Shown here piece by piece: positions 8,306 through 63,623 of a stretch of 64,000 nucleotides of DNA. The notes under the pieces were generated by a model. It ran no database searches. It saw only the letters and a program-made list of their open reading frames with translations, and was not told the DNA's origin. Both the position numbers and the translations under genes were made by a program. Source of the stretch: a virus (Duplodnaviria > Caudoviricetes); IMG/VR virus record IMGVR_UViG_3300009070_000001, positions 1-64,000 of that record; one strand, written 5' to 3'. Every line of letters begins with the position of its first letter. Position 1 is the stretch's first letter.

Positions 8306-8347
8306 AATTTTTTGTTACTTTCTTGTAAACTAAACGTAAAAAAACGT

Positions 8348-8400
8348 TAACAATATTTTAACATATAGTTAACAACTTAGTCAAGCTTTTGGTGTAAAAT
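8348..8400 (+). promoter_or_regulatory. Promoter with three 11-bp-phased TAACA boxes
   Basis: TAACA at 8348/8359/8370, then ACTTAG-N10-GGTG-TAAAAT; same geometry as 5618-5670. Confidence 0.7.
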
Positions 8401-9018: not shown

Positions 9019-9444
9019 ATGGCTAATTGGTTTCAAAAAATGGTGTTTGATAAACTTATAGTAACAACTGTTCGAGAAGGCCTTGGTGGACTTCAAAAAG
9101 GCCTTAGCGATATGGTAATGTCTTCTATTAGTGTTCATTCTAATGAAAATATTTACACCGGACTTTATATGTGGTTGATTAATCAACCACTAAGCAAAAA
9201 ATTTAAAAAGTCTAGAGTGCTAAGTTTAGCTGGCCAACGTGTAGTAGGTCCAGGCTATGGTAAATACAGTATTTGGTATAAAGGAGTAGTTGTTTGGGTT
9301 ACAATTAGTCAAGAAAAAGGTCAAGGCACTAAAGGATTCCCCAGTGCTGAACAAATTACTCTTTCGACTGTAGTTCCTAAAAACACAGTATTGCAAGAAA
9401 TTATTTCCGAAGTTACTAACAAATCAGAAAAGGATAAGAAATGA
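9019..9444 (+). CDS. Stand-alone BCS1 N-terminal-like domain protein (no AAA domain)
   Basis: Y..L..WL..QP, GPGYGKY.IWYKG..VWV, EQITLST, LQEII.E; AGGAG RBS before ATG 9019. Confidence 0.6.
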   Translation: MANWFQKMVFDKLIVTTVREGLGGLQKGLSDMVMSSISVHSNENIYTGLYMWLINQPLSKKFKKSRVLSLAGQRVVGPGYGKYSIWYKGVVVWVTISQEKGQGTKGFPSAEQITLSTVVPKNTVLQEIISEVTNKSEKDKK

Positions 9445-10595
9445 GTTTTTACTTAAACGAAGATCAAGTTCAGAAATTGCTAAACATTGAGGACTTGACC
9501 AAAAGTCCTACACATGCAATTGCTTTGGCAAAGAATAAGATTATTGAGGCCTTAGAAGCAAAATTTGGATTGACTGCTAATGTAATTAATCCAAGTCCAA
9601 TCGTAAGCAAAGAAAATAATTTCTATAAGCTTGGCTATTCGGATAAGGATGAGACTACTAAGGAACGTTATTGTAAGTATACTTCGGAGCAAAATCTTTT
9701 TAGAACCCAAATGACTTCGGCAGTTCCAGAAACTCTTGAGACTCTAGCTCAGGATAAAACTTGGAGTGAAAAGCTTTACTGTTTTCCTGGAATGGTATTT
9801 CGTCGTGACGTAGTTGATCGAACCCACGTAGGCCAACCTCATCAAATGGACGTTTGGTATTTGACCAATAAACGCCAAATGGAACGACGAGATTTGCTTG
9901 AACTGGTTCAAGTAGTTGTTGATCAAGTAACTGAGATTTTCTCTAAAAATGAACCTGAAGCTTTTAAAAAGCAGGGTAGTAAAATTGAATGGCGTTTTAA
10001 CGAAACGGAACATAATTATACTGATCACGGGATTGAAGTAGAAATTATGTATAAAGGTAAATGGTTGGAAATTTTAGAGTGTGGTTTAGCGGGGAGGAAA
10101 CTCCTTACTCAGTCTGGGCTGGGTCCTGAGTATTCAGGCTTAGCTTTGGGAATGGGTCTGGACCGCTTTATCATGCTTACTAAGAATATTGAAGATATTC
10201 GAATTTTGAGAGATAAAAATGCCAAAATTCAAGCACAAATGTCTAATCTCGGAAAATATAAACCGGTTTCTAATCAGCCTTGTATTAAAAGAGATATGTC
10301 CATAGCTGTATGGAAGGGAAGTTTGTTAGAAACTCTTACAGAAAAAGCTTTGGAAGTTATGGGAGATAGAGAAGGATGGGTAGAAGAAATTACTTTAGTA
10401 GCTTCTACTCCGTATGAAGATCTTCCTGAAATGATTCGTCCAAGATTGGGAATTAAAGAAGGCCAAGATAATTGGCATCTTCGTATTGTGTTCAGAGATC
10501 TTACTTCTTCTATTCCTAGTGAAGAAGCCAATTCTCTATATACTCAATTGTATTCTAAGCTTCATGAGGGAGAAGGCGGTTACGCTCTTAAGTAA
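9441..10595 (+). CDS. Monomeric PheRS-like ligase (class II aaRS catalytic domain + FDX-ACB domain; SrmL-like)
   Basis: FRTQMTS, motif 2 GMVFRRDVVDRTHVGQPHQMD, WLEILECG, motif 3 GLALGMGLDRFIML, C-terminal S.QP.IKRDMS. Confidence 0.85.
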   Translation: MSFYLNEDQVQKLLNIEDLTKSPTHAIALAKNKIIEALEAKFGLTANVINPSPIVSKENNFYKLGYSDKDETTKERYCKYTSEQNLFRTQMTSAVPETLETLAQDKTWSEKLYCFPGMVFRRDVVDRTHVGQPHQMDVWYLTNKRQMERRDLLELVQVVVDQVTEIFSKNEPEAFKKQGSKIEWRFNETEHNYTDHGIEVEIMYKGKWLEILECGLAGRKLLTQSGLGPEYSGLALGMGLDRFIMLTKNIEDIRILRDKNAKIQAQMSNLGKYKPVSNQPCIKRDMSIAVWKGSLLETLTEKALEVMGDREGWVEEITLVASTPYEDLPEMIRPRLGIKEGQDNWHLRIVFRDLTSSIPSEEANSLYTQLYSKLHEGEGGYALK

Positions 10596-27184: not shown

Positions 27185-27423
27185 CGCCAGAATATTTTAA
27201 ATTAATTTTTTATGGAAATTACCCTTTGGGTGCTAATGATTTTTACCGATTAAATTATGCTAATTTACCTATTATAATTTTAAATTATCAAGAATATAGA
27301 GATGCCGTAGATATAGACCTAATTTCAGGGCTTTCAGGCAGACTTACACCTTGGGGGTTTTGTAATACTTCATCTACTGAAGAAGGACACTTTGAAAGAA
27401 GTGTTTACAAAGTTGTAACATAA
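27181..27423 (+). CDS. Small protein, YxN[LI]P family
   Basis: LNYANLPII. Confidence 0.7.
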   Translation: MTPEYFKLIFYGNYPLGANDFYRLNYANLPIIILNYQEYRDAVDIDLISGLSGRLTPWGFCNTSSTEEGHFERSVYKVVT

Positions 27424-27469
27424 AGTTTACATCTCTTGAGTAGACAGTCAACCTTGTTACATGTATACT
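27405..27469 (+). promoter_or_regulatory. Sigma70-type promoter with upstream phased boxes
   Basis: TTACA/TAACA/TTACA at 27405/27416/27427; TAGACA-N17-TATACT. Confidence 0.75.
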
Positions 27470-34149: not shown

Positions 34150-34437
34150 TACCAACTAGTCTAGAAAAAATTACTTAAAAAATTTAAATATAAATTTTAT
34201 GATTAAAAGAAAGTAAAACTCAATCAATGATTACATTAGGTATAGTATTTTTTATTTTTATTTTAGGATTTGTTTTATTTTATAGTCCAGAAGAAAGATG
34301 TGATCCTTATTCAGATAATGTTTGCACGGAATGTAGAATAAATAATAGTTATAGAGGATGTAAAAGAAAGTCTTGACAAGAACACTGATCTATGCTACGC
34401 GCATGCGTGTTACTTCTATTATATAAGGCTATCTAGT

Positions 34438-34502
34438 TAACAACTCGTTCATTATCTGTTAACATTTTGTTAATAGACAAATTAGGTCAATACCCTTATA
34501 TT
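34438..34502 (+). promoter_or_regulatory. Sigma70-type promoter with upstream phased boxes
   Basis: TAACA/TCATT/TAACA/TAATA at 34438/34449/34460/34471; TAGACA-N17-TATATT. Confidence 0.75.
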
Positions 34503-40274: not shown

Positions 40275-40277
40275 CCT

Positions 40278-40350
40278 GTCTCAGTAGTTCAGCGGATAGA
40301 ATAGCCGGCTTCTAACCGGTTGGTCGGGGGTTCGAATCCCTCCTGAGACG
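40278..40350 (+). tRNA. tRNA-Arg(UCU)
   Basis: Acceptor GTCTCAG/CTGAGAC, anticodon arm GCCGG-CTTCTAA-CCGGT, T-loop TTCGAAT; CCA not encoded. Confidence 0.93.
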
Positions 40351-40354
40351 TTTT

Positions 40355-40447
40355 GGGGAAATAGCTCAGTTGGTAAGAGCGGCGGCCTTATAAGCCGTGT
40401 TAGTGGAAGTAATTCCCGGCCGAGTTCGAGTCTCGGTTTCCCTACCA
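40355..40447 (+). tRNA. tRNA with UAU (Ile) anticodon and a 21-nt variable region
   Basis: Acceptor GGGGAAA/TTTCCCT-A-CCA, D-stem GCTC/GAGC, anticodon arm GCGGC-CTTATAA-GCCGT, V region GTTAGTGGAAGTAATTCCCGG, T arm CCGAG-TTCGAGT-CTCGG. Confidence 0.88.
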
Positions 40448-50214: not shown

Positions 50215-50265
50215 CTGAGTTTTAGATCCACCGGGTGGGTGCCTTTCCCTCGAGTGGATTTTTTT
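50215..50265 (+). terminator. Operon-end motif copy 2 merged with a terminator hairpin
   Basis: CTGAGTTTTAGATCCACCGGGTGGGT...GTGGAT-T-tract. Confidence 0.6.
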
Positions 50266-50327
50266 CTTTTTATTTTTTATATGTCTTTTTGGTGGAAAAT
50301 AAATTCTCTCAAGACCGATTGACTGCT

Positions 50328-50349
50328 TCAAGACTCAAATCATTTAGGA
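50328..50349 (+). repeat. 22-bp direct repeat, copy 1 (copy 2 at 54922-54943)
   Basis: TCAAGACTCAAATCATTTAGGA, exact. Confidence 0.9.
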
Positions 50350-50502
50350 AAAGTTAAATGTTAAATTTTTGTAAATTGACGGAAAGTTTACATTTAGGTG
50401 CTTGATAAAAAAAATTTCTCGATTTGTCGAAAAGTTAACAATTTGGTAACAACTTTTTTATTTTCTCGTTTTGGTGAAAAGTTAACATTTTGTCTATTTT
50501 TG

Positions 50503-50534
50503 CTAGTTGCAACTTTTTGCATGTAGCCGTTCCA
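50503..50534 (+). repeat. 32-bp direct repeat, copy 1 (copy 2 at 50889-50920)
   Basis: CTAGTTGCAACTTTTTGCATGTAGCCGTTCCA, exact. Confidence 0.9.
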
Positions 50535-50569
50535 GCCGGGTAGGAACCCGCCGCGCTGCCAGGCTTTGT

Positions 50570-50663
50570 TTACAACCTGTTCATAATATGTTAACATTTT
50601 GGAAACATTGTTTTAGCCAAAACCGTGCTACTATAGAAGGGGGATCCGATCCTATAAAAAAAA
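50570..50663 (+). promoter_or_regulatory. Four phased boxes + 37-bp element, copy 1
   Basis: Boxes at 50570/50581/50592/50603; TGCTACTATAGAAGGGGGATCCGATCCTATAAAAAAA from 50626. Confidence 0.75.
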
Positions 50664-50888
50664 GGGGGTTTAGTGAATGGCTGTATACCTACAGGATCCT
50701 TACATGTAAGGGAACTTCTCGAAGCCCCTCTCTTGTGTCTAAACCGACGGAACAACCCGAGAAACCTTAACGAAGCCTATGTCCGGCTTACACCAGCGGA
50801 CAAGGGTGCCCAGGCTAGAAACCGCCTTACAGGCCCTTACAGGTGGATTTACTCAAGGTGAGCATAACTTTACCCGGTTTGGCGAAGT

Positions 50889-50920
50889 CTAGTTGCAACT
50901 TTTTGCATGTAGCCGTTCCA
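50889..50920 (+). repeat. 32-bp direct repeat, copy 2
   Basis: Identical to 50503-50534. Confidence 0.9.
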
Positions 50921-51145
50921 AATGTTGTCGTTTCTTAACAAACAGCCGGACCGTTTAAAACGGATTTGTGATAAGGTCACGGGGTAGAAATTTTACGAAA
51001 AGAGATTTTTCAAATGTCGAATATTCAAACCCCTAACCCGAACAATATCCACGGTATCGGCAGGGACGCCCTTGTGGGAAGATTGCTTCACTCTATAAAC
51101 CCTGGCGACCAGAACGGGTTTGAAAGCCCGGCGGAGTAACCGGCC

Positions 51146-51604
51146 ATGCATTGGATTATTCTCCAGCCTTTTAAGGGCTATACGCAATCCACTACCGAAA
51201 TTGACGAATTCGGTGTCGAGCTAGTCGCCTTTTCAGGAGGCTTAACTTTTGAGGAATATGTTCGGCAAGCGCAGAACATTTCCAAGCAAAAGGGTTTGGA
51301 AATTCCTCAATTCATCAAAGTAACGGATGAAGAATTAGACGTTCTTCTGAGGGAATACTACGCAGGCTTGAAAACGAAGCCTTCTGAAATTTCTCAAGAA
51401 CGCTTTGATGACATGCTGAACGTTCTCCCTCCGTCCCGTTGGACCAAACACGGAAGAGGCGGAAGTTATTTTCACGTTTGCGAGAAAATAACCGACAGTC
51501 TTGTCGATTGGTATTTCTCAATTGGCAACCGATACTATACCTTTGTGGATAATTTCTATCTTCCACATGACCAATTAGTTAAAATCATTTCGGAGGTAAA
51601 ATGA
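51146..51604 (+). CDS. DUF1419-like protein
   Basis: EISQERFDDMLNVLPP.RW.....F...E. Confidence 0.65.
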   Translation: MHWIILQPFKGYTQSTTEIDEFGVELVAFSGGLTFEEYVRQAQNISKQKGLEIPQFIKVTDEELDVLLREYYAGLKTKPSEISQERFDDMLNVLPPSRWTKHGRGGSYFHVCEKITDSLVDWYFSIGNRYYTFVDNFYLPHDQLVKIISEVK

Positions 51605-51749
51605 AGGAATTCACTTTCATGATCGCGCTTACCGGCTACGGAGAAACTCCCGAAGAAGCGTTTCAAGATGCCGTTAAAGATATTGACGAATCTCATTTCC
51701 GGCCAAATGACTGGGTATCGTATACTGAAGAAACTGGAGAATAAAAATC

Positions 51750-52133
51750 ATGGCTTCGCAAATTGTTTCGGCCCCTCGCATGTATCACGGTAAACTTTCG
51801 AACGCGACCAGTATGCTTGAGCATTCCCGGCAAATGCAAATGAGAGGTTACGCTTCCCATGATCCGCTGGTGATTAAGCCTTTTGAGGAAGCACAAAAAC
51901 TCCTTGAGGAGGCTTGCACCGGGAACACCGCTCAGGAATTGCTAGGCTTGTGGGAGGCGAACCCTCTCGCCAGCAACCCACAGGAGCTAGATGCCTGGAG
52001 GCTGGAGGAAACGTTCCTGGTGCGTCTAGAACAGGTGGAACATGCCCGCCGCAGTCTAGCGGCGTCTGAAGCCAACCTGGCAGCAGTAACGGCCGAACGC
52101 CGCGCCCGATCCCTTCCCGGAGGTATGATCTAA
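51750..52133 (+). CDS. Hypothetical protein (GC-rich module)
   Basis: GGAG RBS; helical protein. Confidence 0.6.
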   Translation: MASQIVSAPRMYHGKLSNATSMLEHSRQMQMRGYASHDPLVIKPFEEAQKLLEEACTGNTAQELLGLWEANPLASNPQELDAWRLEETFLVRLEQVEHARRSLAASEANLAAVTAERRARSLPGGMI

Positions 52134-52529
52134 TGGTTTGCAGAAATCATCTTTCGCTTTGGCAACGAAACACCGTTTGCAATCAAATGATTTCCTTGCC
52201 TATGCTGGCCCCTCTTTGTCCGGTTTGGATTGAAGAGAGTTTCGAACTTCACAAATCCAGCGAAATTTCCCAAGAAGACCGCGAGGATTTGAAAGACAAG
52301 CCCGAAGCGCAGGTTCAAAAAATCCTGGAGCTACTTCAACCCGTTTAAGGCAAAATCAAAAATACTTCAACAACCGCTTAACTATTACCTCTAGGGTGAA
52401 ATCCAAGTTATTAAAAAACCATAACAGTTTTTCTTGACTCCTGGTTTTCAAATCGGTTATAAAAGAGAAGTAGCAAACAACGGCCACCGAAAAAACGGTA
52501 GGACCAAAGCTTAAAGGAGAAACACAATC

Positions 52530-53075
52530 ATGGCTAAGAGTATCAACGTAGAAACCGCTAACCTGCAGGGCCTGAGCATCGAGGAGTTGAACGTTCTCTT
52601 GAACCGCGTTCAGGAACTGCTTCCGACTCCCGCCGCCGATCCTTACCTTCAATTGGTTCCCGTCGCTTATGATACCCGCAAAACCACGGACCGGGAACAT
52701 TGGTTCCGGCTCCTCGGCAAGGAAGCGGTCTTGACTCAGAAACTCCTGTTTGACCTGGAGGGTGACGAACCCAAGGTGGTCGGCGCGAAACTCTTCGTCA
52801 ACGGCACCCTACGCGGCCATATCGAAAGCGAGGATCTGTCTGAGGTTGGCCACTACTCCACCTTGGTGAAAGCTTTCGACACGTGGAAGAACCACAAGCC
52901 CGCCGAAACCGAGGAATCCAATGTGGTGGGCATTCGTGGGCGTATGCCTTCGAAGGCAATCCGTGAACTGCTCGATCAAGGCAAGACCATTGCCGAGATC
53001 GCTGAAGCCACGGGGCGGCCCGAAGCCAGCATCGAAGCCTGGATCAAGAACCAGGAAGAGGCCGCCAGCGCCTAA
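52530..53075 (+). CDS. C-terminal HTH protein, paralog 3 of 3
   Basis: YDTRK..DREHWFRLLGKE...GAKLFVNG...RGRMPSKAIRELLDQGKTIAEIAEATGRPEASI; AAGGAG RBS; TTGACT/TATAAA promoter at 52434-52463. Confidence 0.8.
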   Translation: MAKSINVETANLQGLSIEELNVLLNRVQELLPTPAADPYLQLVPVAYDTRKTTDREHWFRLLGKEAVLTQKLLFDLEGDEPKVVGAKLFVNGTLRGHIESEDLSEVGHYSTLVKAFDTWKNHKPAETEESNVVGIRGRMPSKAIRELLDQGKTIAEIAEATGRPEASIEAWIKNQEEAASA

Positions 53076-54283
53076 GCTGGAGCTTTGAAACGGACCCTGG
53101 AAGCCAATGCTTGCGAAGCGCACAGAGGCCGAAGGGGTCTTTTTCCGTCCCGTCTGATAAGAAAGGAGCGAATCATGGGCACAATTTTAGAAAAGCAAAC
53201 CAGACTTTTCCAGGACCTTGCCCGCCGCCTTCCGGAGGAACCAAAACCTGTTTGGTGGATTATCCGAACTATTGGGGGCAATTTCTTTATAGGTATGGAT
53301 CATACCGGTCGTGCGGAATCATCTACGGATATAAAGGACGCTGCAACCTTCCAAACGGAACCTGATGCCCTCCAAATCGCACAGAATTTAGGCCCGGCTG
53401 TATGGAAAGTTCATAGGGTCGAGAACGGCGAACTTCAGCCCCTCTCTATAGAGGAGCAAATCGCACAGGGCACCCATTGGGTTATTGAAAACAACGCTGG
53501 TGCGTCCGCAAAGTCGTGAACGGAGAATTGCAAGATGAAAAAAGGCAAACCTAGATGGAAAGATGAGCCTTTTGGGTTTGGAACTTGGGGCGACTATGCT
53601 CAACGACAACGCCAGGCGCGCTACAATAAGAAAGTGAGGAAACGTCATGAGCTTAAGCAAAGAAAAACTCGAAACCGCTCGGAACAAGGCAATTGAAATT
53701 TGCTCTATTCTCAAGCTTGCCGGTGTCGAGCATAAGACCGGCGGAGAAGTCTCCTGGGAGGAGCATGCCTTAATTGACGCCTTAGAACTCTGTGACAGTC
53801 AGTCTAGGAGGAGCCATGCAACAGTTCGAAAACCTCGGCCTCGTGGAAGAAGCTGAACCCACCGAGGAACAGATCCAAGCAAGCTACGAAGCCCGAGCGG
53901 AAGCGGAACCTCTAGAACGCTGGGAGGCTCAAAAAATTGCTTCCGAATGGCATGACGGACAGGGAAGCGCCTTGTATTCCTTCGCTTCCACCAGTGAACT
54001 GGGCCATTTTTCTTTGCTGGCTTTCGAACTTGAAATCAACGCTTGTCTTAGATCAGGCTTGTCCCATGGTGGTCGAGAAGATATGAGCCTGCGTGAATTG
54101 CTAGTATTCATTCGTCAAAATCACCCCAGCAACCAAAACGAGAAATTCATTCTCCTGGATCCGTTTGAGAAATTTCTTCAGAATTTCGAAGGTGAATTCC
54201 AGACGGTAACAACCGTAAAGGGTATGCTGTTTCAGATCCGCGAGTATATCCGCATGAACACCTTGGAACAATAGGAGGCTAAC

Positions 54284-54516
54284 ATGAAAAACGATCTTTT
54301 GAAAAAAATTAACGCTGTAATTTTACTGAAAGAGGAGCTAGGAGAAGAAGATACTGGGGTTACCTAGAAAATATAGTAGAAAATTTCCTCTATGCATTGC
54401 GGGCGGATTTGCATGCTGAATTAGGTGCTGCTTCGTCCCTTGAGCAGGATATAGCTATATCTACGGCTCAAGGGTGTATAGCTCGGGTATTTGCTCGCTA
54501 TGGAGTTTTAGCATGA
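54284..54516 (+). pseudogene. Small gene with an apparent frameshift near 54350
   Basis: GGAGG RBS, MKNDLLKKINAVILLKEELGEE, then YWGYLENIVENFLYALRADL...RYGVLA* in a shifted frame. Confidence 0.5.
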
Positions 54517-54810
54517 ACAAACGAAGATTTGCCTACAGGCCAGGAACTGCATACTGGCGAGAGAAGCCGGCTACGGCTAAATACGTATGGACCAAGAAGG
54601 CTCAAAAGGCCGCTAGAAAGGACCAGAGAAAGTGAGCGAGAAACGCACCTGCTCCTGTGAGGTTGTTTTGGTGGAAGATTTGGAAAAACTTTTTGAATAT
54701 GATCAAAACTGGAAAAACATGCTCGGGAAAATGTCTTTCGACATGGTAAAAAGCCGGGTTATGGAATTCGTTAAAGCCAATACCTGGAAACACTAACGAA
54801 AAAAACTTCC

Positions 54811-54862
54811 CTGAGTTTCAGATTCACCACGTCCCCTTGACCATAGTTGAGGGGATTTTTTT
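54811..54862 (+). terminator. Operon-end motif copy 3 + terminator
   Basis: CTGAGTTTCAGATTCACC then TCCCCTTGA-ccatag-TTGAGGGGA-T-tract. Confidence 0.7.
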
Positions 54863-54921
54863 CTTTTCTTTTTAAAGGCCGTCCCAGCGGAAGAAATAAA
54901 CTTCGAAGCGGGCCGAGGAAC

Positions 54922-54943
54922 TCAAGACTCAAATCATTTAGGA
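54922..54943 (+). repeat. 22-bp direct repeat, copy 2
   Basis: TCAAGACTCAAATCATTTAGGA. Confidence 0.9.
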
Positions 54944-55078
54944 TTTGCTAAATTCAGCAATTATGAACTAATGAACTTCGAAATTGCGAAAAGCTGCAAT
55001 GCAGACTTGATGAATTGCGAAAAAGTTAAATGTTATGGAACCTTAACATTTTCGATTGACTTTCGCCCCCCTTGAGTA

Positions 55079-55115
55079 TGCTACTATAGAAGGGGGATCC
55101 GATCCTATAAAAAAA
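55079..55115 (+). repeat. 37-bp element, copy 2
   Basis: TGCTACTATAGAAGGGGGATCCGATCCTATAAAAAAA. Confidence 0.92.
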
Positions 55116-55327
55116 GGCCACGTTTGTTCACGTGGTCGAGTGTATACCAGTGAACGGATCGGCAGGTGAACGGTGTATACCGTCCCCAGTATACCGGCGC
55201 GGCGCGCCGCCTGTCTCCTACAGGCTCAAAAGAATTTTCCGTCGGGATTTTTCTGGATTTGTCAACTACAATTTTTCTGCTTGACAAACAGGCCTGTTCT
55301 CCTGTCCGAAAAACGCTTGACACCATG

Positions 55328-55364
55328 TGCTACTATAGAAGGGGGATCCGATCCTATAAAAAAA
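55328..55364 (+). repeat. 37-bp element, copy 3
   Basis: TGCTACTATAGAAGGGGGATCCGATCCTATAAAAAAA. Confidence 0.92.
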
Positions 55365-55416
55365 AAGCAGTGCCAAATGTTAACAAAATGTTAAAGTCAA
55401 GTATGGGTATAGAATT

Positions 55417-55648
55417 TTTTTTGTCAACAGTTTTTTGGCGATCATGGAAAAAAAATTTTGTCAAGTGAGGACATGGAAAGTTTTTTGTCAAGGATTATGC
55501 GGTAGATTGCATAATTTCGAAATATGCCTATACACAAATAACCGGTTTTGTCAAGCGAAGTTCACAATTTGTTAACATGCTCACGTTGGAGCATGGAACG
55601 ACACCGAACCGGTTTGTCAAGGCAGCACAAAAGAAAAACTTTGTCAAA
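55417..55648 (-). repeat. Cluster of six TTTGTCAA (reverse TTGACAAA) motifs
   Basis: Near 55420, 55457, 55483, 55547, 55613 and 55640. Confidence 0.75.
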
Positions 55649-56188
55649 TCAGGTGAACAAACTGCTATGCGGTTTCTAGGCCCTGTAGGGCCCTTTTTAG
55701 GCGTTCAGACCCCTGGCCGGTGTATTGGGTCCTAAACTTTTTTTGCGCAGGTCGGCTACATGTTTGTTCACTACTTTGCAGCACAAAGTGAACGTTTTTT
55801 GGGCAACCAGGACCCTTCGAGAAAACTCGCACCCTGTCCTCTCATGCAAATGTTAAGATTTTCCAACAAATATCCCCCGCCTTGCTGGCGGAATCCTCGC
55901 CGCGCCATGTTAATGTTTGTGAACACTTTTTTCTATGCCAAACGTCGGCAGGTTCTGGCACAAACGCAGGCCAAACCCGCATAAACACTACGTTCCCGAG
56001 CATGTAGGGTGCCGATACTGGCCGGATCTCATGAAAGAGCCGTGCTATAGTCGGAGTATGAGTAACGCAATAGAAACCGCCAAAGCCGCCGCCCGCCGCG
56101 CGCGCTTCGTCCTCGTTCCTGTGACCAAAGTCGAAGCCCCTCAAGAAGACGCGCTTCACATGGAAATTTTCCTCACCGGAGGTTTGAA

Positions 56189-56521
56189 ATGAGCATCCGC
56201 GCCGAGTTGACCAAAACCCGCACCCTCTCCGACAGTCAGGAAGGCTTCGCCGTTTTCCTCTTCGTGTCTCTCTACGCCGCCCTTGTGTTCGTTGCGCAGG
56301 TGGCTTTGCTCACTACGCCTGCTCCGCTTGCTTCCGACCTGTGGATCGGCTGTAAGCATACGCCTTCCCTCGAGCTTTGGATGTTGACCGAAGCCGCGCA
56401 CCGCGCTTCGCAGGCCTGGAACCTGCGGGTGATTGTAGAGGTTCCGGCCGTGTTCCTGGGTCTCACGTTCCTTGGCTTCGCCGCCATTAACGCAGGTATT
56501 TTCCGAAAGGTAGGACGTTAG
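56189..56521 (+). CDS. Two-TM membrane protein (GC-rich module)
   Basis: GGAGG RBS; two hydrophobic helices. Confidence 0.6.
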   Translation: MSIRAELTKTRTLSDSQEGFAVFLFVSLYAALVFVAQVALLTTPAPLASDLWIGCKHTPSLELWMLTEAAHRASQAWNLRVIVEVPAVFLGLTFLGFAAINAGIFRKVGR

Positions 56522-56523
56522 CC

Positions 56524-57060
56524 ATGATCGTCAAATCGAACTACCGCGCCGACAAGGCTAAACGCCTGCGCAAGAATGGCGGAAGCCTAATTGCCGAACT
56601 CTCGCTTATGCTCACGAAGCGCGAAGTTGCGCCTGTTTCCGCCATGCCTTCGGTTTGGGATTCCCCCGAATGTGACGAATTCGCGCCGAATTGGGAACGC
56701 GAATACCGCTTCGGCAATTTACAGCAAGACCTGTGCGTCATGATCGCTTCGGACGGATATCCTGCTTCTAAGGGTAAGATCTTGGAATGGCTCAATTCCG
56801 CTTCCGTCGCAGGTGTCACCCTCCAGGGATTTTCGTGGGAAAGCGAATTTGACCAGAATGCCGGAACCGAATTCCTGCAGGCTTCGGGCTTTGTTCCGCT
56901 CGGGAACCGCTTGGAAAGCGCCCATGCTTTGTGGGATTGGTTGCAGGATTCCGACAACGAGGAGGATCGCCAGCAAGGCTGTGACCTGTTCCGCGAGGAA
57001 TTGGTTTTGGCTTCCCGCGTGCGCCCCCACCGAAAAACCCGAAGGAGGATCTTCCGCTAA
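56524..57060 (+). CDS. Hypothetical protein (GC-rich module)
   Basis: Coupled to neighbouring genes; C-terminal L.DWLQD..E.R. Confidence 0.6.
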   Translation: MIVKSNYRADKAKRLRKNGGSLIAELSLMLTKREVAPVSAMPSVWDSPECDEFAPNWEREYRFGNLQQDLCVMIASDGYPASKGKILEWLNSASVAGVTLQGFSWESEFDQNAGTEFLQASGFVPLGNRLESAHALWDWLQDSDNEEDRQQGCDLFREELVLASRVRPHRKTRRRIFR

Positions 57061-57872
57061 TGTTCGCCGCTTGGAAAATCCCTCTCCCCCCGAACTTTGA
57101 CCTTTACCGCGAAACGACCGAACGGATCCAGGCCTATCATGCCGCGTTCGAATGGAACGAATTTTTCGCCGATTTCACCCAGGCCTTAAGCCTGTTCCCC
57201 ACCAAACTACCCGCTAGCACCGCACGAAAGGACCCTTCCGCCATGTCTAAGATTGAAACCGCATTTGCCCTTCTCACCGAATCCCGTAATGCCCATAATA
57301 CGGGTGAAGGCAAGCCAGGGATCATCCTCCTGGAGAACCAAGCAGAAGCCTTGTTTCGCCAGGAGCTAGGGCACACAGGAGCGGATTTTCTCCGCTCCGC
57401 CGGGATTCTGTCCCGGGACTTCCCTGGCAGGACCCTCGCTTCTTTGCCCGATGGTTCGCTTCGAAAGGCGCTTCTAGCCGCGAGCGAGGCGAAAGCCTGC
57501 TTATCGGGCCTGGGTATCGAGGAGGGAACGCAAGCAGGCTTCGTGAGCTTACGCAACCTGCTCAAAAGCCTGGGCAAAATCCCCGGGAGGACCCGCGAGA
57601 TTGCACCCTACTGCTACTCCCAGAACAAACCGAACGGCACCCGTGAAAGGTCGGCCGGAGCCGTGGCCTGGGTAATTCTCGAGCTTTACCGGAAGATCCC
57701 GGGTATCGGCCCAGGTTGGGCGCTAACGGATGAAGAAGCCTACCCGGCTTGCTCCTGGGCCGGGAAATGGGAACGCACGAAAGTCAGCAAGGAAATCGAG
57801 ACCATGGGAACAAAGAACTTTTGGGTTTTCGCCAATGCGGTTGCCGAAGCAGGCATGCTGGTGGCTAAGTGA
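57060..57872 (+). CDS. Hypothetical protein (GC-rich module)
   Basis: TAATG stop/start overlap; 270 aa. Confidence 0.55.
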   Translation: MFAAWKIPLPPNFDLYRETTERIQAYHAAFEWNEFFADFTQALSLFPTKLPASTARKDPSAMSKIETAFALLTESRNAHNTGEGKPGIILLENQAEALFRQELGHTGADFLRSAGILSRDFPGRTLASLPDGSLRKALLAASEAKACLSGLGIEEGTQAGFVSLRNLLKSLGKIPGRTREIAPYCYSQNKPNGTRERSAGAVAWVILELYRKIPGIGPGWALTDEEAYPACSWAGKWERTKVSKEIETMGTKNFWVFANAVAEAGMLVAK

Positions 57873-58526
57873 AATACCTCTATTGCCTTGTGGGGTATTT
57901 GAGCCCGGTGCGACCGGTTGCAGGGCTTTTCGCATAGACCGGAAAGCAGTGAAAGGCAAAGCGGTAGTTTGGTCCCTACAGGCCTGCCTAACCGGTAAAT
58001 TTGAGGAGGTTGAAATTTCGTGAAACTCTTGAACTTAGACCTGAGTCCCGAACGCTTGGCCAGCATGTCGAGCAAAGACCTGAATCGCGCCAAAGACATG
58101 GCTATCGAGTTGACGAATTTTCTCGACTGCCTTGCGACTGCGGCGGAATACCGCGAAGAAGGTGACGAGAAGGAAGCCTGCCGGTGTAAACGAGCGGCAG
58201 AACGTAAATTCATTCCCGTAAGAGAGGTTAGCTAGCGTGTCCGCTCAAGTGCATCCGATTCTGGCCCGCATTCATTCTGACATGTGGCGTAACCACGAAA
58301 TTAAACAACAGGTCATTTTGACCGTTCCCTTCGTCCCTCTCGTTTGGATCGAAATTTGCTCAATTCAGCAAAAGCCTTACACCTGCCCTTATGAAAAGAA
58401 GCAAAGGCCTGCTCGTATTGGCCTGTCCAAGGTAACAGCCTGCTTCGGTGGCACCGGCGGGCAGGCCTGGCATTATGTGACAATGGAAGGCCCGCGGTCT
58501 AAATCAAAGAAGGAGAACGCATAACC

Positions 58527-59069
58527 ATGGTAACCAAACAGGAAGCAATTAACCCGAGCGTTCGGGAATTTTACCACGTGTCGGATAAGCAGGCTGATGG
58601 GAAGACGCCTGTCAGGTGTAGGCGCAACGGACAAACCAAGGTTTGGAAAACTCGTCCTGATGAATTTCGTATCCCGGTGAAACAAGGCTTTTATGGACAG
58701 GGCTATATCACCCAGGCCAATGCCCACGAATGGGTCCCTGCGGACAAATGGGACGCTTATACTTCTTCCCGCACCGAGGTCCGTGATAACAGACTCACGG
58801 AAGCTCAGAAGCAGGTCGTTCTCTCCCAGCGCCAAACCCGCGCCTATTGGGCGGCCCGTGAAGCCCGCCTCCGTCGCGACCTGGATATCCAGGGTATCGA
58901 CCTAGATACCGCTTCCTACGAAGACTTGCCCCTGTGGGCAACCGAAGAAGATAACCTGATTCGGGCCGCCCGCCTCAACCTCATTCGCGAGGTCTCGGTC
59001 CTGGCCGTCAAGAATGACACCGACCTGTTCCTCGCGATTGTCAGGTATGCTAAGGCGGTTGCCAATTAA
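58527..59069 (+). CDS. Phage early-type hypothetical protein
   Basis: R.RRNGQTKVWKTRPDEFRIPVK.G.Y..GYIT motif; AAGGAG RBS. Confidence 0.65.
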   Translation: MVTKQEAINPSVREFYHVSDKQADGKTPVRCRRNGQTKVWKTRPDEFRIPVKQGFYGQGYITQANAHEWVPADKWDAYTSSRTEVRDNRLTEAQKQVVLSQRQTRAYWAAREARLRRDLDIQGIDLDTASYEDLPLWATEEDNLIRAARLNLIREVSVLAVKNDTDLFLAIVRYAKAVAN

Positions 59070-59171
59070 GGTGACCAAAGCAGGACGAGAACAGGCCGCC
59101 CTTCTGAGCGGATTGCTCATTTGATTTGCCCTTAAGAAAAGTAACCCACATTTCACAAATTAGCTCGCACG

Positions 59172-59209
59172 GGGAATTCCTAATTCGTTAATTTGAATTA
59201 GGAATTCCC
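59172..59209. repeat. Perfect 15-bp inverted repeat at the strand switch
   Basis: GGGAATTCCTAATTC-gttaattt-GAATTAGGAATTCCC. Confidence 0.85.
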
Positions 59210-59487
59210 ATTTTGATTTTGTCCCTAGAGAAAAATTCATTTTACCTGGGTTGAATCGAACTCAATTAGTCATTTCTAATTCGAAAATGAAAAAATCCCC
59301 TAGAGCAAAATGGAATTTTCAAATAGGACTAGGCAAATTTCCAATTTGCCGCAGTCAATCTCACATTTCGAATTGCACCCTGGGGGGGGGGTAATTAAAA
59401 GGAATTTTATTCAATTTTTGAGAAGCCTAAGCTATTTCAAATGATCATGATATATTATAGAGTTTTGTTCAACAATTGTTAGACTAT

Positions 59488-61273: not shown

Positions 61274-61516
61274 TTATTCATATACGAGATCTAATCTCCA
61301 CACATGATAGGCTAAGGGACTATATCCCCAACTTGAGCGGCCAGTTAAACTAATAATATAAGGTCTTAAGGCCTGACTTCTAGTTTTGTTATAATTAAAA
61401 TATACAATAGGAAGATTTTTATAAAACAAACCAGCTAGACAGCTATTAAGATCTAAAACTTTATATGTAAGATCTTGTAATTTAAGTTTTTTATTCTTCA
61501 TCAAACGAATAAACAT
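61274..61516 (-). CDS. Small protein, YxN[LI]P family
   Basis: LFYKNLPIV...IISLTGRSSWGY. Confidence 0.7.
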   Translation of the reverse strand: MFIRLMKNKKLKLQDLTYKVLDLNSCLAGLFYKNLPIVYFNYNKTRSQALRPYIISLTGRSSWGYSPLAYHVWRLDLVYE

Positions 61517-61745
61517 AAATCAAAGGATTTGTTCTAGGATAAAAATCTTGTAGAGTATCACTATCAATATTTTTCTTAAAAGATTTATTATAAACACTAC
61601 AAATTCTAGAAGAAAGAATATTACTCTTATCAATCATAATTGTAAGGTTAGCATGTTTAATTAATGTAAATAAATAAGTATATTTACGCCCCAAATCTTC
61701 GTCTTCGGGCTGTTCATCTCTAAAATGATCTTCGATAAATAACAT

Positions 61746-61964
61746 TTATTTTTCTCTCTTACAAAATTTATAGCTATTATGAGTTAACGTCTTGTAATCC
61801 CAACTATTTTCGCCTGTAAGTTTAATAATGATACTTCCAAAAGTGTCATTTACCTTACGAGGATTTATAAATATACAAAGAGGTATATTTTTATAGGATA
61901 CCCTACCCCATTGTTGACGATCTATGTCATCATATTGATAAATTAAATTATTTATATCTAGCAT
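61746..61964 (-). CDS. Small protein, YxN[LI]P family
   Basis: VSYKNIPLC...IIKLTGENSWDY. Confidence 0.7.
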   Translation of the reverse strand: MLDINNLIYQYDDIDRQQWGRVSYKNIPLCIFINPRKVNDTFGSIIIKLTGENSWDYKTLTHNSYKFCKREK

Positions 61965-62182
61965 AGTTCATAAAAAGACCATATATCAGAATCATTCGTA
62001 GAGTTATAGGACCATTTGGTTACATTTGTAAGAGATTTAATATATCTATAAAACAAATTTTCCGGAAAACTTTCCGATTTACTTATCTGATTATCCCAAA
62101 CAAAAATAGGAATATTTTTATAATAAAGTATATAATGATTTGGAGAAGTTTTTGTATTAAAATAAAAATCAGTTATTTCCAT
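61958..62182 (-). CDS. Small protein, YxN[LI]P family
   Basis: LYYKNIPIF...IKSLTNVTKWSY. Confidence 0.7.
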   Translation of the reverse strand: MEITDFYFNTKTSPNHYILYYKNIPIFVWDNQISKSESFPENLFYRYIKSLTNVTKWSYNSTNDSDIWSFYELC

Positions 62183-62391
62183 AAGCTATACTGTTTCGGT
62201 CCAATAACTTTTACTTGCCACATACTAGTTTCAGTTATTTTTTTTATAAGGTCACTATAGTCAGTTCCATAATTATATTCTTCTTTATTTTCTTTATATA
62301 TAAAGATAGGTAAATTATTATAATGAACATAGTATTTTACTATGCCATAAGACTCATCTAAACAAAAATTTATATTATTTATATTTAATAT
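62173..62391 (-). CDS. Small protein, YxN[LI]P family; missed by the ORF track (no ATG/GTG/TTG start, possible ATA)
   Basis: Manual translation ILNINNINFCLDESYGIVKYYVHYNNLPIFIYKENKEEYNYGTDYSDLIKKITETSMWQVKVIGPKQYSLWK*; ends approximate. Confidence 0.6.
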   Translation of the reverse strand: MLNINNINFCLDESYGIVKYYVHYNNLPIFIYKENKEEYNYGTDYSDLIKKITETSMWQVKVIGPKQYSLWK

Positions 62392-62606
62392 TTTAAACCC
62401 TTAGGACGAACTAATAAATAATAGGTATTTATAATTCTTTCATGGATAGTAGATTTTTTATCTAGAAGATCTCTTTGTAATTTAATACTAGTAAATTCTT
62501 CCGTAGTTCTAACTGCAAAAGGTATATTATTTATATACCAGATTTGATTGACTACTCGATTAGTGAAATCAGGGGAATAGTAATTAACGTATCCAAATCT
62601 AGTCAT
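62385..62606 (-). CDS. Small protein, YxN[LI]P family
   Basis: WYINNIPFA. Confidence 0.65.
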   Translation of the reverse strand: MTRFGYVNYYSPDFTNRVVNQIWYINNIPFAVRTTEEFTSIKLQRDLLDKKSTIHERIINTYYLLVRPKGLKY

Positions 62607-62937
62607 AAATTATTGTCGGTCAAAAGTAGGACTGAAATATCATCGTATTTAATAATTTTTTTGTCATAGTGCCAATACAATAAAGGAGTAAAAGCTGTTT
62701 CGTGTCTACTATAGCGATCCGAGCCACGAGATCTTAAAGCTGTTCTTAACTTAAACATATACATGTGGTGCTTAACAATTTGCTTAAGATACATTTTTCC
62801 ATCATAAGAACAATATCTACCTACTAAAACTGGTTGCTTACAACAATCGTTGTAATTAAAACTGTAATAACAGTCTTTATCTTTTACATAGTAAGCCCCT
62901 TCGGGGAAAACTTTTTTATAAAATTCTGGAATAGTTG

Positions 62938-63162
62938 CTACAATTGGGAACATTCATTTTTATTTCTTATTCTAAGATTTATTGAGTCTGCTTCAGTTAT
63001 ATCTAATAGACTATAAATATATTTTTTATATAAATCCCAACAATTTGGCTCTTCTATAAAAAATGTTCCTACAGGTAGATTTGCCATATATAAAATAATA
63101 CGGCTACGCTCTGATCGTTGATTACGATATGTTTCATAACAGATATATTTATGAAACTTCAT
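62938..63162 (-). CDS. Small protein, YxN[LI]P family
   Basis: LYMANLPVG. Confidence 0.65.
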   Translation of the reverse strand: MKFHKYICYETYRNQRSERSRIILYMANLPVGTFFIEEPNCWDLYKKYIYSLLDITEADSINLRIRNKNECSQL

Positions 63163-63349
63163 AATAATCACTTAGTATTGGTTTAAAATAAAATTCAAAA
63201 TATTTATTTGGAAATATTTTTTTAATTACAGACTTGTAGTCTCCCTTATAAGCAGTATTTAATGAAAAAAGAGGAACATTATTCCAATAAAACACACCAT
63301 TCCACTTAGTGGGGTGAGAATTTGTATAAAAAATTCTATAATATAACAC
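63149..63349 (-). CDS. Small protein, YxN[LIV]P family
   Basis: FYWNNVPLF. Confidence 0.65.
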   Translation of the reverse strand: MLYYRIFYTNSHPTKWNGVFYWNNVPLFSLNTAYKGDYKSVIKKIFPNKYFEFYFKPILSDYYEVS

Positions 63350-63623
63350 TAGAAATATTGGACTTCCTTTTTTAGAAAAAATTTACGAGGAGTAGTTAGG
63401 CTCTCAACATAATCCCATTCAGTTTCTTCAGCAGAATTAGAAATTTTATTTACTAAATAATGATTATCGTATAAATTACACTCGGTTCTAGAGTCTAGAA
63501 TCCAAACAGTAACATTACCTAGAAGGTAATATTCAAACCAGCTACCTTTATGATCTACTATGTGAGTAGTTAAAATATTTTCCATAAATCTCCAAAAGAA
63601 AATAGCCCCTTGCGGGGCTTCTC

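Follow-up and report, generated by a model that had tools for sequence, protein, structure and literature searches.

What are three letter-perfect copies of a 37-bp sequence doing within a short, GC-rich part of the genome of an uncultured tailed phage? The window analysed here, i.e., the first 64 kb (64,000 nucleotides) of the 145,021-bp viral record IMGVR_UViG_3300009070_000001, holds this element at positions 50626-50662, 55079-55115 and 55328-55364, always on the + strand. A first-pass annotation of the same DNA had described it as a promoter fused to an invariant leader that could give rise to a family of non-coding RNAs or to replication primers. The answer that we favour, and to which we give about an even chance, is that the copies constitute a + strand promoter private to the GC-rich island in which they lie, together with the invariant first 22-27 nt of two long-leader messenger RNAs (mRNAs). 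Observed in its support are the three exact copies, the architecture of the units that they head, their non-coding leaders and a lack of other good promoters, whereas on which strand the element acts, where transcription starts, which polymerase reads it and whether it includes an operator are points that we infer. Positions are those of the window, except where G000 denotes the coordinates of the whole 145,021-bp genome.

An exact repeat in three copies

How exact, and how exclusive, is this repeat? A pattern search allowing up to 3 mismatches returned the three copies without a single one, just as they had been reported, and none of 100 shuffled sequences gave a match (chance expectation, 0). 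Scanning the whole genome yielded the same three 37-mers and none beyond, while in a Hamming scan of both strands the next-best match already carries 14 mismatches in 37 positions, degenerate copies being absent. Among the repeats of at least 16 nt, collected from a 14-mer seed, the element is by far the longest exact repeat with three copies. Its identity block opens at the TG of an extended -10 motif or one base earlier, and copies 1 and 3 are identical over 39 nt. In copy 1, TGcTACTAT (50626-50634) is followed by a run of five G, by the palindrome GGATCCGATCC (50642-50652) and by TATA plus an A tract, whose length (A8 in copy 1, A7 in copy 2 and A9 in copy 3) agrees with the A7-9 described before. 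The palindrome GGATCnGATCC is confined, genome-wide, to the three copies. Copy 3 stands in tandem with copy 2, 249 bp downstream of it.

Two of the parts that the first-pass annotation distinguished are present but carry less weight than it gave them. All three copies have the extended -10, defined by a TG at -15/-14 that stands one base ahead of a hexamer whose second base is A and whose sixth is T. The motif alone is no evidence, however, as TGnTAnnnT without further constraints is found 247 times genome-wide. The mini-hairpin likewise exists, with a stem of 4-5 bp, a 3-nt loop and no U run after the stem, but its stability is low (-3.2 kcal/mol, z -0.41) and is matched by 73 of 200 shuffles.

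Two terminator-bounded units with long leaders

All three copies lie inside a GC-rich island at ~50.4-59.2 kb (50400-59250), with 41-61% GC in 400-bp windows versus ~31% elsewhere, a stretch that is unique in the 145-kb genome. The island consists of two co-directional units with ~20 small genes, all on the + strand, mostly preceded by GGAG-type ribosome-binding sites and with a clear codon-position periodicity. No such periodicity of the GC content is seen at 54.9-56.1 kb, and only a weak one at 50.4-50.9 kb.

The resident operon upstream ends in an intrinsic terminator with a hairpin and a T run (50224-50283, + strand; -18.4 kcal/mol, z -3.34), homologous to the one that closes operon A (54831-54868, + strand; -15.8 kcal/mol, z -4.09), and a palindromic terminator marks the right end of the island (59172-59209, + strand; -25 kcal/mol, z -5.34). 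Copy 1 follows the first of them by ~343 nt and copy 2 follows the second by ~211 nt. Copy 1 heads unit A, which continues on the + strand with a non-coding leader (50663-51013) and with the ~13 small genes of operon A (51014, or 51146, to 54796), none at the curated Pfam cut-off. The tandem pair, with copy 2 as its first element, heads unit B, made up on the same strand of a non-coding leader (55365-56057) and operon B (56058-59069), with 7 genes that lack a family match. The two modules, of ~4.6 and ~4.4 kb, are built in the same order: terminator, control region, 37-mer, leader and operon. Upstream of copies 1 and 2 the sequences are homologous but diverged, and these regions share the terminator, GTTAACA-type boxes, a 22-nt box (TCAAGACTCAAATCATTTAGGA, at 50328-50349 on the + strand, with a second exact copy at 54922-54943, both ~50 nt past a terminator) and a TTAACATTTT box that precedes TACTAT by 32 nt in copy 1 and by 33 nt in copy 2, and between these same regions the 37-mer is 100% identical. 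No paralogy between the genes of the two modules was detected at E<0.001. The alignment that would give the right edge of the island a third such module is unconvincing, and this idea was discarded. The idea of a promoter fused to an invariant leader fits this context, where each terminator-bounded + unit starts with a copy.

Are the transcripts free RNAs? The absence of a credible gene for 450-900 nt holds, with the first genes lying 352-484 nt past copy 1, and 943 and 694 nt past copies 2 and 3. Less likely is the family of free non-coding RNAs with no open reading frame (ORF) downstream, since operons with ribosome-binding sites and coding periodicity follow the leaders, and the simplest products would consequently be mRNAs with long 5' untranslated regions. 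Furthermore, the leaders are not unusually structured (folding z-scores of +0.39, -1.95 and -1.79), and Rfam returned no family at E<=1 within 49.5-60 kb. The weak hairpin, the ordinary leaders and the lack of an Rfam match make a free-standing family of structured non-coding RNAs unlikely. The palindromes that had been named downstream of the copies are there, and the one at 55116-55137 (+ strand), directly after the A tract of copy 2, forms a stable hairpin (-12.3 kcal/mol, z -3.83). A ToxI-like RNA of a type III toxin-antitoxin system was also considered and rejected, as Tandem Repeats Finder reports no tandem array at 55.3-55.7 kb and PADLOC no match at E<=0.001. Closer to operon B, the sequence GTGCTATAG at 56041-56060, 15 nt before the first ATG, is an echo of the first 12 bases of the element minus CTA; it forms an extended -10 (TGcTATAGT) that would yield a nearly leaderless mRNA.

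Strand and polymerase

How would the element work as a promoter? In the reading that we favour, a host σ70-type RNA polymerase would bind the extended -10 TGcTACTAT without a -35 box and would start in the G run, at ~50639-50642 in copy 1; a start 6-8 nt past TACTAT coincides with the first base of the 5-bp hairpin. Each island transcript would then open with the same short sequence, a 5-bp hairpin at its 5' end and then the A tract, copy 1 driving operon A via a leader of ~370-500 nt and the tandem copies 2 and 3 driving operon B via one of ~700-960 nt. The 11-bp palindrome GGATCCGATCC, at ~+2 to +12, would more likely be a DNA operator for a regulator of the island or of the phage than an RNA structure. 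The position just after the transcription start is a classic one for an operator, which would, in addition, fix positions that the polymerase does not read and so could account for the freezing of all 37.

Part of the case for a promoter comes from what the island otherwise lacks. A scan with the σ70 consensus at a threshold of at least 10/12 gives 63 sites genome-wide and none on the + strand within 50.05-59.5 kb, so that the island units would be promoterless without the element. The resident phage does use canonical σ70 promoters, e.g., TTGACA-17-TAGAAT at G000 111334(-). One gene within operon A (52530-53075), encoding a 181-aa protein with a C-terminal helix-turn-helix (HTH), has its own canonical promoter TTGACT-18-TATAAA at 52434-52463, read from the sequence and missed by the 10/12 filter. 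As for the polymerase, the genome has no Sigma70_r2 match and only sub-threshold region-4-like HTH matches, and PF00940, the T7-type polymerase family, finds nothing in it at E<=1, while the SP6 control in the same search scores 2.6e-93. With neither a σ region-2 gene nor a T7-type polymerase gene found, the host polymerase is the default.

The element can, nevertheless, be read in three registers: (a) the + strand extended -10 TGcTACTAT with a start in the G run; (b) TATAAA, with which the element closes, as a + strand -10 hexamer without the key final T; and (c) a minus-strand TTTATA-17-TATAGT. The motif matches by themselves do not discriminate among these; the + strand is favoured by the context, because the units need a promoter, all the genes point that way and nothing is conserved leftwards. 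Several points weigh against our interpretation as register (a). TACTAT agrees with TATAAT at 4 of 6 positions only, the motif is as common as stated above, and no copy has a -35 box at 16-18 nt, the nearest candidates being a TTGACT 19 nt away in copy 2 and a TTGACA 7 nt away in copy 3. The consensus scan scores the minus-strand reading at 9/12 in all three copies. A host promoter needs no 37 invariant positions, the hairpin is indistinguishable from shuffles, and no relatives were found that could show conservation or covariation.

Could the element then be a σ70 promoter of the minus strand that fires leftwards, with the T tract as UP element, TTTATA as -35, a 17-nt spacer that contains the palindromic operator, and TATAGT as -10? 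The identity block would in that case cover a whole promoter, from the UP element to ~-1, like the promoter duplicate at G000 110256/111309 described below, and the ATG of a 73-aa minus-strand frame lies 2 nt from copy 3. But 9/12 matches are common (15 found versus 8.8 +/- 2.9 in shuffles), and to the left there is no conserved gene (of the three minus-strand frames downstream, which are unrelated to one another, the first two have no family match). Leftward transcripts would be antisense to the ends of the upstream operons, into which they would extend, and both + units would be left without a promoter. We consider this arrangement improbable.

A different polymerase would be required if the copies were promoters for a single-subunit enzyme of the T7/SP6 type, acquired from an Autographiviridae-like donor and starting at the G of CTATA/G (the stroke marks the start), either as a recent relic or with the polymerase supplied in trans. 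The sequence has TATA at -4 to -1 and G at +1 (CTATA/GAAGG), the copies match the SP6 consensus, drawn from 12 CACTATAG sites of the SP6 genome, at 14, 13 and 14 of 23 positions (-17 to +6), and copy 1 agrees with SP6 site 22430 at 16 of 19 positions (-11 to +8), with a stem-loop from ~+4 in both. Exact multi-copy identity, a tandem pair and small ORFans (genes without recognisable relatives) in one direction are typical of such phages, and a recent import would explain both the un-ameliorated GC content and the missing coding-strand skew of the island. However, there is no cognate polymerase gene according to the PF00940 search, the conserved region from -17 to -8 is not reproduced (-17 to -12, conserved in the 12 SP6 sites, vary among the copies, and -8 and -7 differ from SP6), and the identity extends to +27, far past such promoters. 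The common 10-mer ACTATAGAAG is expected ~0.6 times by chance in an AT-rich 145-kb genome, by base-frequency arithmetic, and the resident GTTAACA boxes upstream of copies 1 and 2 argue against an untouched import. On balance we hold this origin to be unlikely, and the host-read + strand promoter remains the interpretation that we carry forward.

Resident boxes and possible signs of recombination

A cluster of GTTAACA/GTTTACA/GGTAACA boxes occupies 50367-50600 (+ strand), upstream of copy 1, and includes three 31-nt repeats at 50367, 50415 and 50462 (spacing of 48 and 47 nt), with GTTAACA/GTTTACA boxes also at 50568 and 50590, an arrangement with which the "four phased boxes in register" seen by the first-pass annotation coincide only partly. 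Boxes of this type form tandem intergenic clusters all over the low-GC genome; examples are found in the window at 1696-1728, 8330-8384, 12670, 25567, 27403-27441, 34435-34474 and 36603, and in the remainder at G000 69322-69339, 72364, 110242-110281 and 111326-111358. They also occur inside canonical promoters, namely the one at 111334(-) and TTGACA-17-TAGGAT at 110281(-), and they are probably operators of a phage regulator. Given this genome-wide distribution, the control regions of the island use the regulatory motifs of the resident phage even though its genes look foreign. The two canonical promoters just named, close to the DNA polymerase gene, have a 32-nt exact repeat in common (G000 110256-110287 and 111309-111340) that takes in their -35 box, their spacer and the first part of their -10, which makes it a second exact promoter duplication in this phage.

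Another exact repeat, of 32 bp and direct, is found around copy 1: it contains the 10-bp palindrome AGTTGCAACT, its two copies lie at 50503-50534 and 50889-50920 (+ strand), and the pair flanks copy 1 and 226 nt of its leader. These repeats could be looping operators or the scar of an inserted promoter cassette. Is the element, then, mainly a patch of homology or a recombinase target for the swapping of cassettes, with promoter activity as a secondary property? Two tandem modules of similar size and the same succession of parts would suit such a role, as would the all-or-none identity, which is what gene conversion would give, the 32-bp repeat that flanks copy 1 like an integrated mini-circle, the UvsX-like and SbcCD-like recombination genes of the phage and an independent contig of the same phage that begins at 59276, at the right edge of the island. 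On the other side, family searches recognise no recombinase in the island, the modules share no paralogous genes, the right edge has no convincing third regulatory module, and variants without the island are not indicated, as the island and flank proteins are each found on 20-21 contigs. A primary role in recombination is therefore, in our judgement, very unlikely, and that of promoter-leader is the one that we retain.

The box array in leader B

Leader B contains a feature that leader A lacks. Seven TTGACAA boxes in minus orientation, at 55265, 55427, 55464, 55491, 55554, 55620 and 55647, form an array of 383 bp (55265-55647). Of the 33 TTGACAA sites of the genome, 8 fall within a single kilobase here, 7 of them in minus orientation, with a Poisson P of ~1e-10, or ~2e-8 once corrected for 145 bins. 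Only the box at 55427 has a -10 partner, and a weak one (CATACT, at 16 nt), the remaining six having none. The array occupies the stretch of lowest GC of the island (0.39), and its spacing is irregular (27, 37, 27, 63, 66 and 27 nt); Tandem Repeats Finder does not see it. The array could be iteron-like, i.e., part of an origin or a centromere, or a site for protein titration.

This bears on the suggestion that the element supplies replication primers or R-loop origins, which finds circumstantial support for copies 2 and 3 only. Transcripts from these copies (and perhaps from copy 1) would activate or prime an iteron-type origin at the array, or mark a centromere-like site there. The clustering of the boxes is significant, the array comes directly after the tandem promoter pair in the lowest-GC stretch, and two weak terminator-like hairpins follow it. 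But those hairpins are no better than shuffles (z -0.24 and -0.98), copy 1 has no array, the spacing is irregular, no initiator-like protein is recognised, and the cumulative GC skew shows no origin signal. A signal of this last kind was looked for and dismissed: across the island the cumulative G minus C is flat, and elsewhere it merely rises and falls with gene orientation. A function in replication or segregation seems to us improbable, to the same degree as the leftward promoter.

Extending this idea, one may conceive the island as a semi-autonomous hitchhiker carried by a lytic phage. It would have a private promoter, with the SP6-like core and the 37 frozen positions recognised by a factor of its own, be it an island protein that escaped recognition or a polymerase acting in trans, and its own iteron-type origin or centromere in the TTGACAA array, towards which copies 2 and 3 would fire; the 37-bp copies would be its control points instead of ordinary phage promoters. 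This scenario we regard as very improbable. The long leaders also bring to mind a nut-like RNA site, comparable to lambda N/nut, where the 5' hairpin would be the target of a small protein of the island, rich in arginine, that lets the polymerase read through them. Operon A does encode two very basic products, a 53-aa protein (53535-53696; net charge of +13, with an arginine-rich stretch) and a 40-aa peptide (54513-54635; net charge of +12), and leader B has hairpin-plus-T-run sites. Against it, the hairpin of the element (-3.2 kcal/mol) is like those of shuffles and the leader hairpins are weak as terminators. Antitermination of this kind is the least probable of the explanations weighed here, and we consider it extremely unlikely.

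The island, its proteins and its phage

Where does the island come from? Its genes lack the coding-strand excess of G over C of the resident genes, and it is most likely a foreign-looking, GC-rich insert of ~9 kb in an uncultured phage. It sits at the junction between a 59-kb block of + strand genes and a block of minus-strand genes. Five island proteins and two flanking proteins are each found, letter for letter, on 20-21 contigs from several sources, so the island is not an assembly chimera; the same counts for island and flank proteins give no sign of island-less variants. An alternative genetic code was discarded, since the longest frames are barely altered when TAG or TGA is read through and TAA read-through lengthens them only moderately.

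The island proteins themselves say little about their function. None reaches the curated cut-off against Pfam, PHROGs gives one weak match only (E 4e-4), PADLOC gives none at E<=0.001 and two at E 0.004-0.008, and the Atlas look-alikes all score below 0.85. The AlphaFold models have a mean pLDDT of 44 and 58. In a word-indexed search of 5.8 billion clusters, the 270-aa and 180-aa proteins of operon B, the two submitted to it, find only themselves. The 181-aa HTH protein has one distant relative over most of its length (P0010; 34% identity, E 9e-12) in an exhaustive HMMER search of a library of 1.8 billion representatives, and this relative could be placed on no contig searched. In another assembly, a 144,949-bp contig, two shorter proteins stand in place of the 181-aa one (P0009, with 76 aa, and P0003, with 99 aa), so that the gene is either split in that contig or called differently.

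Are there related loci in which the element could be compared? A 24-mer of it has 0 exact matches in IMG/VR, a 34-mer from the left flank likewise 0, and the element with a free loop is absent both from the JGI metagenome contigs and from those of the GTDB genomes (0 matches each). Neither the 270-aa island protein, nor a 190-aa left-flank protein, nor P0010 led to a related locus, and an alignment of P0002 and P0010 searched against metagenomes did not either. Neither the island nor 30-50 kb had a match among phages and plasmids by blastn or megablast. The right-flank gene was found at 37 loci, of which 18 were tabulated (those of at least 12 kb, plus L009); among these 18, only L009, from the same phage, shares neighbouring genes, and the other 36 loci have no local GC-rich island within up to 10 kb on each side, four of them being GC-richer throughout. 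L009 is an 85,541-bp IMG/VR contig from another sample, with 12 shared proteins that are 100% identical; its start at 59276 is 67 nt past the last terminator of the island, i.e., the break in that assembly coincides with the edge of the island.

The rest of the genome is that of a large tailed virus, with a family-A DNA polymerase, helicases, a UvsX-like recombinase, SbcCD, ribonucleotide reductase, portal, protease and capsid. No polymerase of the phage collection exceeds 25% identity to its DNA polymerase, and the phage stands far from cultured ones. The "direct terminal repeat" (DTR) at the genome ends is exactly 127 bp long and a capsid gene continues from one end into the other; instead of marking true termini, the repeat may result from assembler overlap in a circular or permuted genome. 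The first-pass suggestion of sites at which loaded RNA polymerase pulls the DNA in would require the element to lie at the genome end that enters the cell, an end that a repeat of this kind may not mark. One of the contigs with these proteins measures 444,944 bp, ~3 genome lengths. A run of small minus-strand genes (~65-116 aa) occupies 61274-63585, and the pair compared in it (61274-61516 and 61746-61964) are weak paralogues, with 29% identity over 66 aa. An 848-aa DnaB-like helicase (G000 101698-104244) and an 840-aa terminase-like protein (G000 133948-136470) have extra PHROG matches in common (phrog_19299, phrog_510 and phrog_50), which suggests that the same domain, e.g., an intein, may be inserted in both. 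At 40277-40447, tRNA genes for Arg(TCT) and Ile(TAT) stand side by side, the latter being unusually long (93 nt), and the unusual cargo of the phage comprises a protein with a class II tRNA-synthetase core domain, PheRS-alpha-like (9441-10595), and an FtsH-like ATP-dependent protease (G000 124628-126625; PHROG E 1.9e-209).

Comparison with known regulatory cassettes

If the reading as a host-read promoter with an invariant leader start is true, the island would provide a clean, natural and portable promoter-leader module that wires two unknown gene blocks into a phage with different-looking promoters. The 37-bp element would also offer an exact handle for cloning, for reporter tests and for read-level searches of cassette gain and loss. 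What, then, are its closest counterparts? Its unusual traits are the 37 frozen positions, the SP6-like core without a polymerase and the box array in the leader.

Among hairpin-containing promoters, those of the N4 type place a DNA hairpin, with a stem of 5-7 bp and a loop of 3 nt, ahead of the start, and are read by a giant virion polymerase. The hairpin of the element has 4-5 bp and a 3-nt loop; for the largest ORFs of the phage (1501 and 957 aa), PHROGs, Pfam and the PDB sequences give no match, and no such polymerase was recognised by those family and sequence searches. The late promoters of SP6 and T7 share with the element the core CTATA/GAAGG, with the 16/19 agreement at SP6 site 22430, the stem-loop at ~+4 and the exactness of multiple copies; they differ from it in having a cognate polymerase gene, in the conservation of -17 to -12 and in an identity that does not reach +27. 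T7 also possesses the early promoters A1-A3, and its primary origin lies behind the tandem promoters phi1.1A/B. In T7, as would be the case here, several strong promoters stand close together before a long untranslated stretch and small early genes, and the tandem pair phi1.1A/B, before an AT-rich stretch, acts as an origin; unlike the copies of the element, however, the T7 promoters are not identical to each other.

Phage morons, of which HK97 provides an example, offer a second term of comparison. They are units of promoter, gene(s) and terminator that have been added to a phage genome, as set out in PMC2839356. The island units resemble them in being self-contained, with their own promoter and terminator, in their deviant base composition and in their location between resident transcription units. 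A moron, though, has usually one gene and an ordinary promoter, whereas here there are two operons (7-13 genes) with one exact promoter-leader and very long leaders.

Close in concept, as are the morons, stand the PeSL (promoter-early stem-loop) cassettes of T4-type phages. In the papers on them (PMC2839356 and PMC4122927), these are promoter and stem-loop motifs located in ORFan-rich regions, which recombine and form mini-circles (PMC2839356), and for which a homology of less than 100 bp can serve recombination. The element shares with PeSLs the repeated composite of promoter and stem-loop, the location in a variable, ORFan-rich part of a large lytic phage and the provision of signals for unrelated gene cassettes. 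The association with ORFans is borne out by the island proteins, none of which reaches a curated family cut-off and two of which, of 270 and 180 aa, find only themselves. By the same descriptions, PeSLs have clear -35 and -10 boxes and an AT-rich upstream region, while in 3/3 copies here no hexamer at 16-18 nt resembles a -35 box; the stem-loop of a PeSL terminates strongly, while the hairpin of the element is weak, follows the presumed start and is preceded at 211-343 nt by the real terminators; and PeSLs end in the Shine-Dalgarno sequence and ATG of the next gene, while the leaders here measure 352-943 nt. PeSLs, moreover, are described in ~50 similar but non-identical copies per genome, compared with 3 exact copies in a phage that is not T4-like. 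The likeness is thus one of function and not of membership, the defining features of PeSLs being absent. If our interpretation is correct, it would extend the idea behind PeSLs and morons, i.e., of regulatory cassettes through which phages acquire new genes and express them, to an unrelated lineage of uncultured phages, and the element is most likely a variant of the known phage regulatory cassettes rather than a new class of element.

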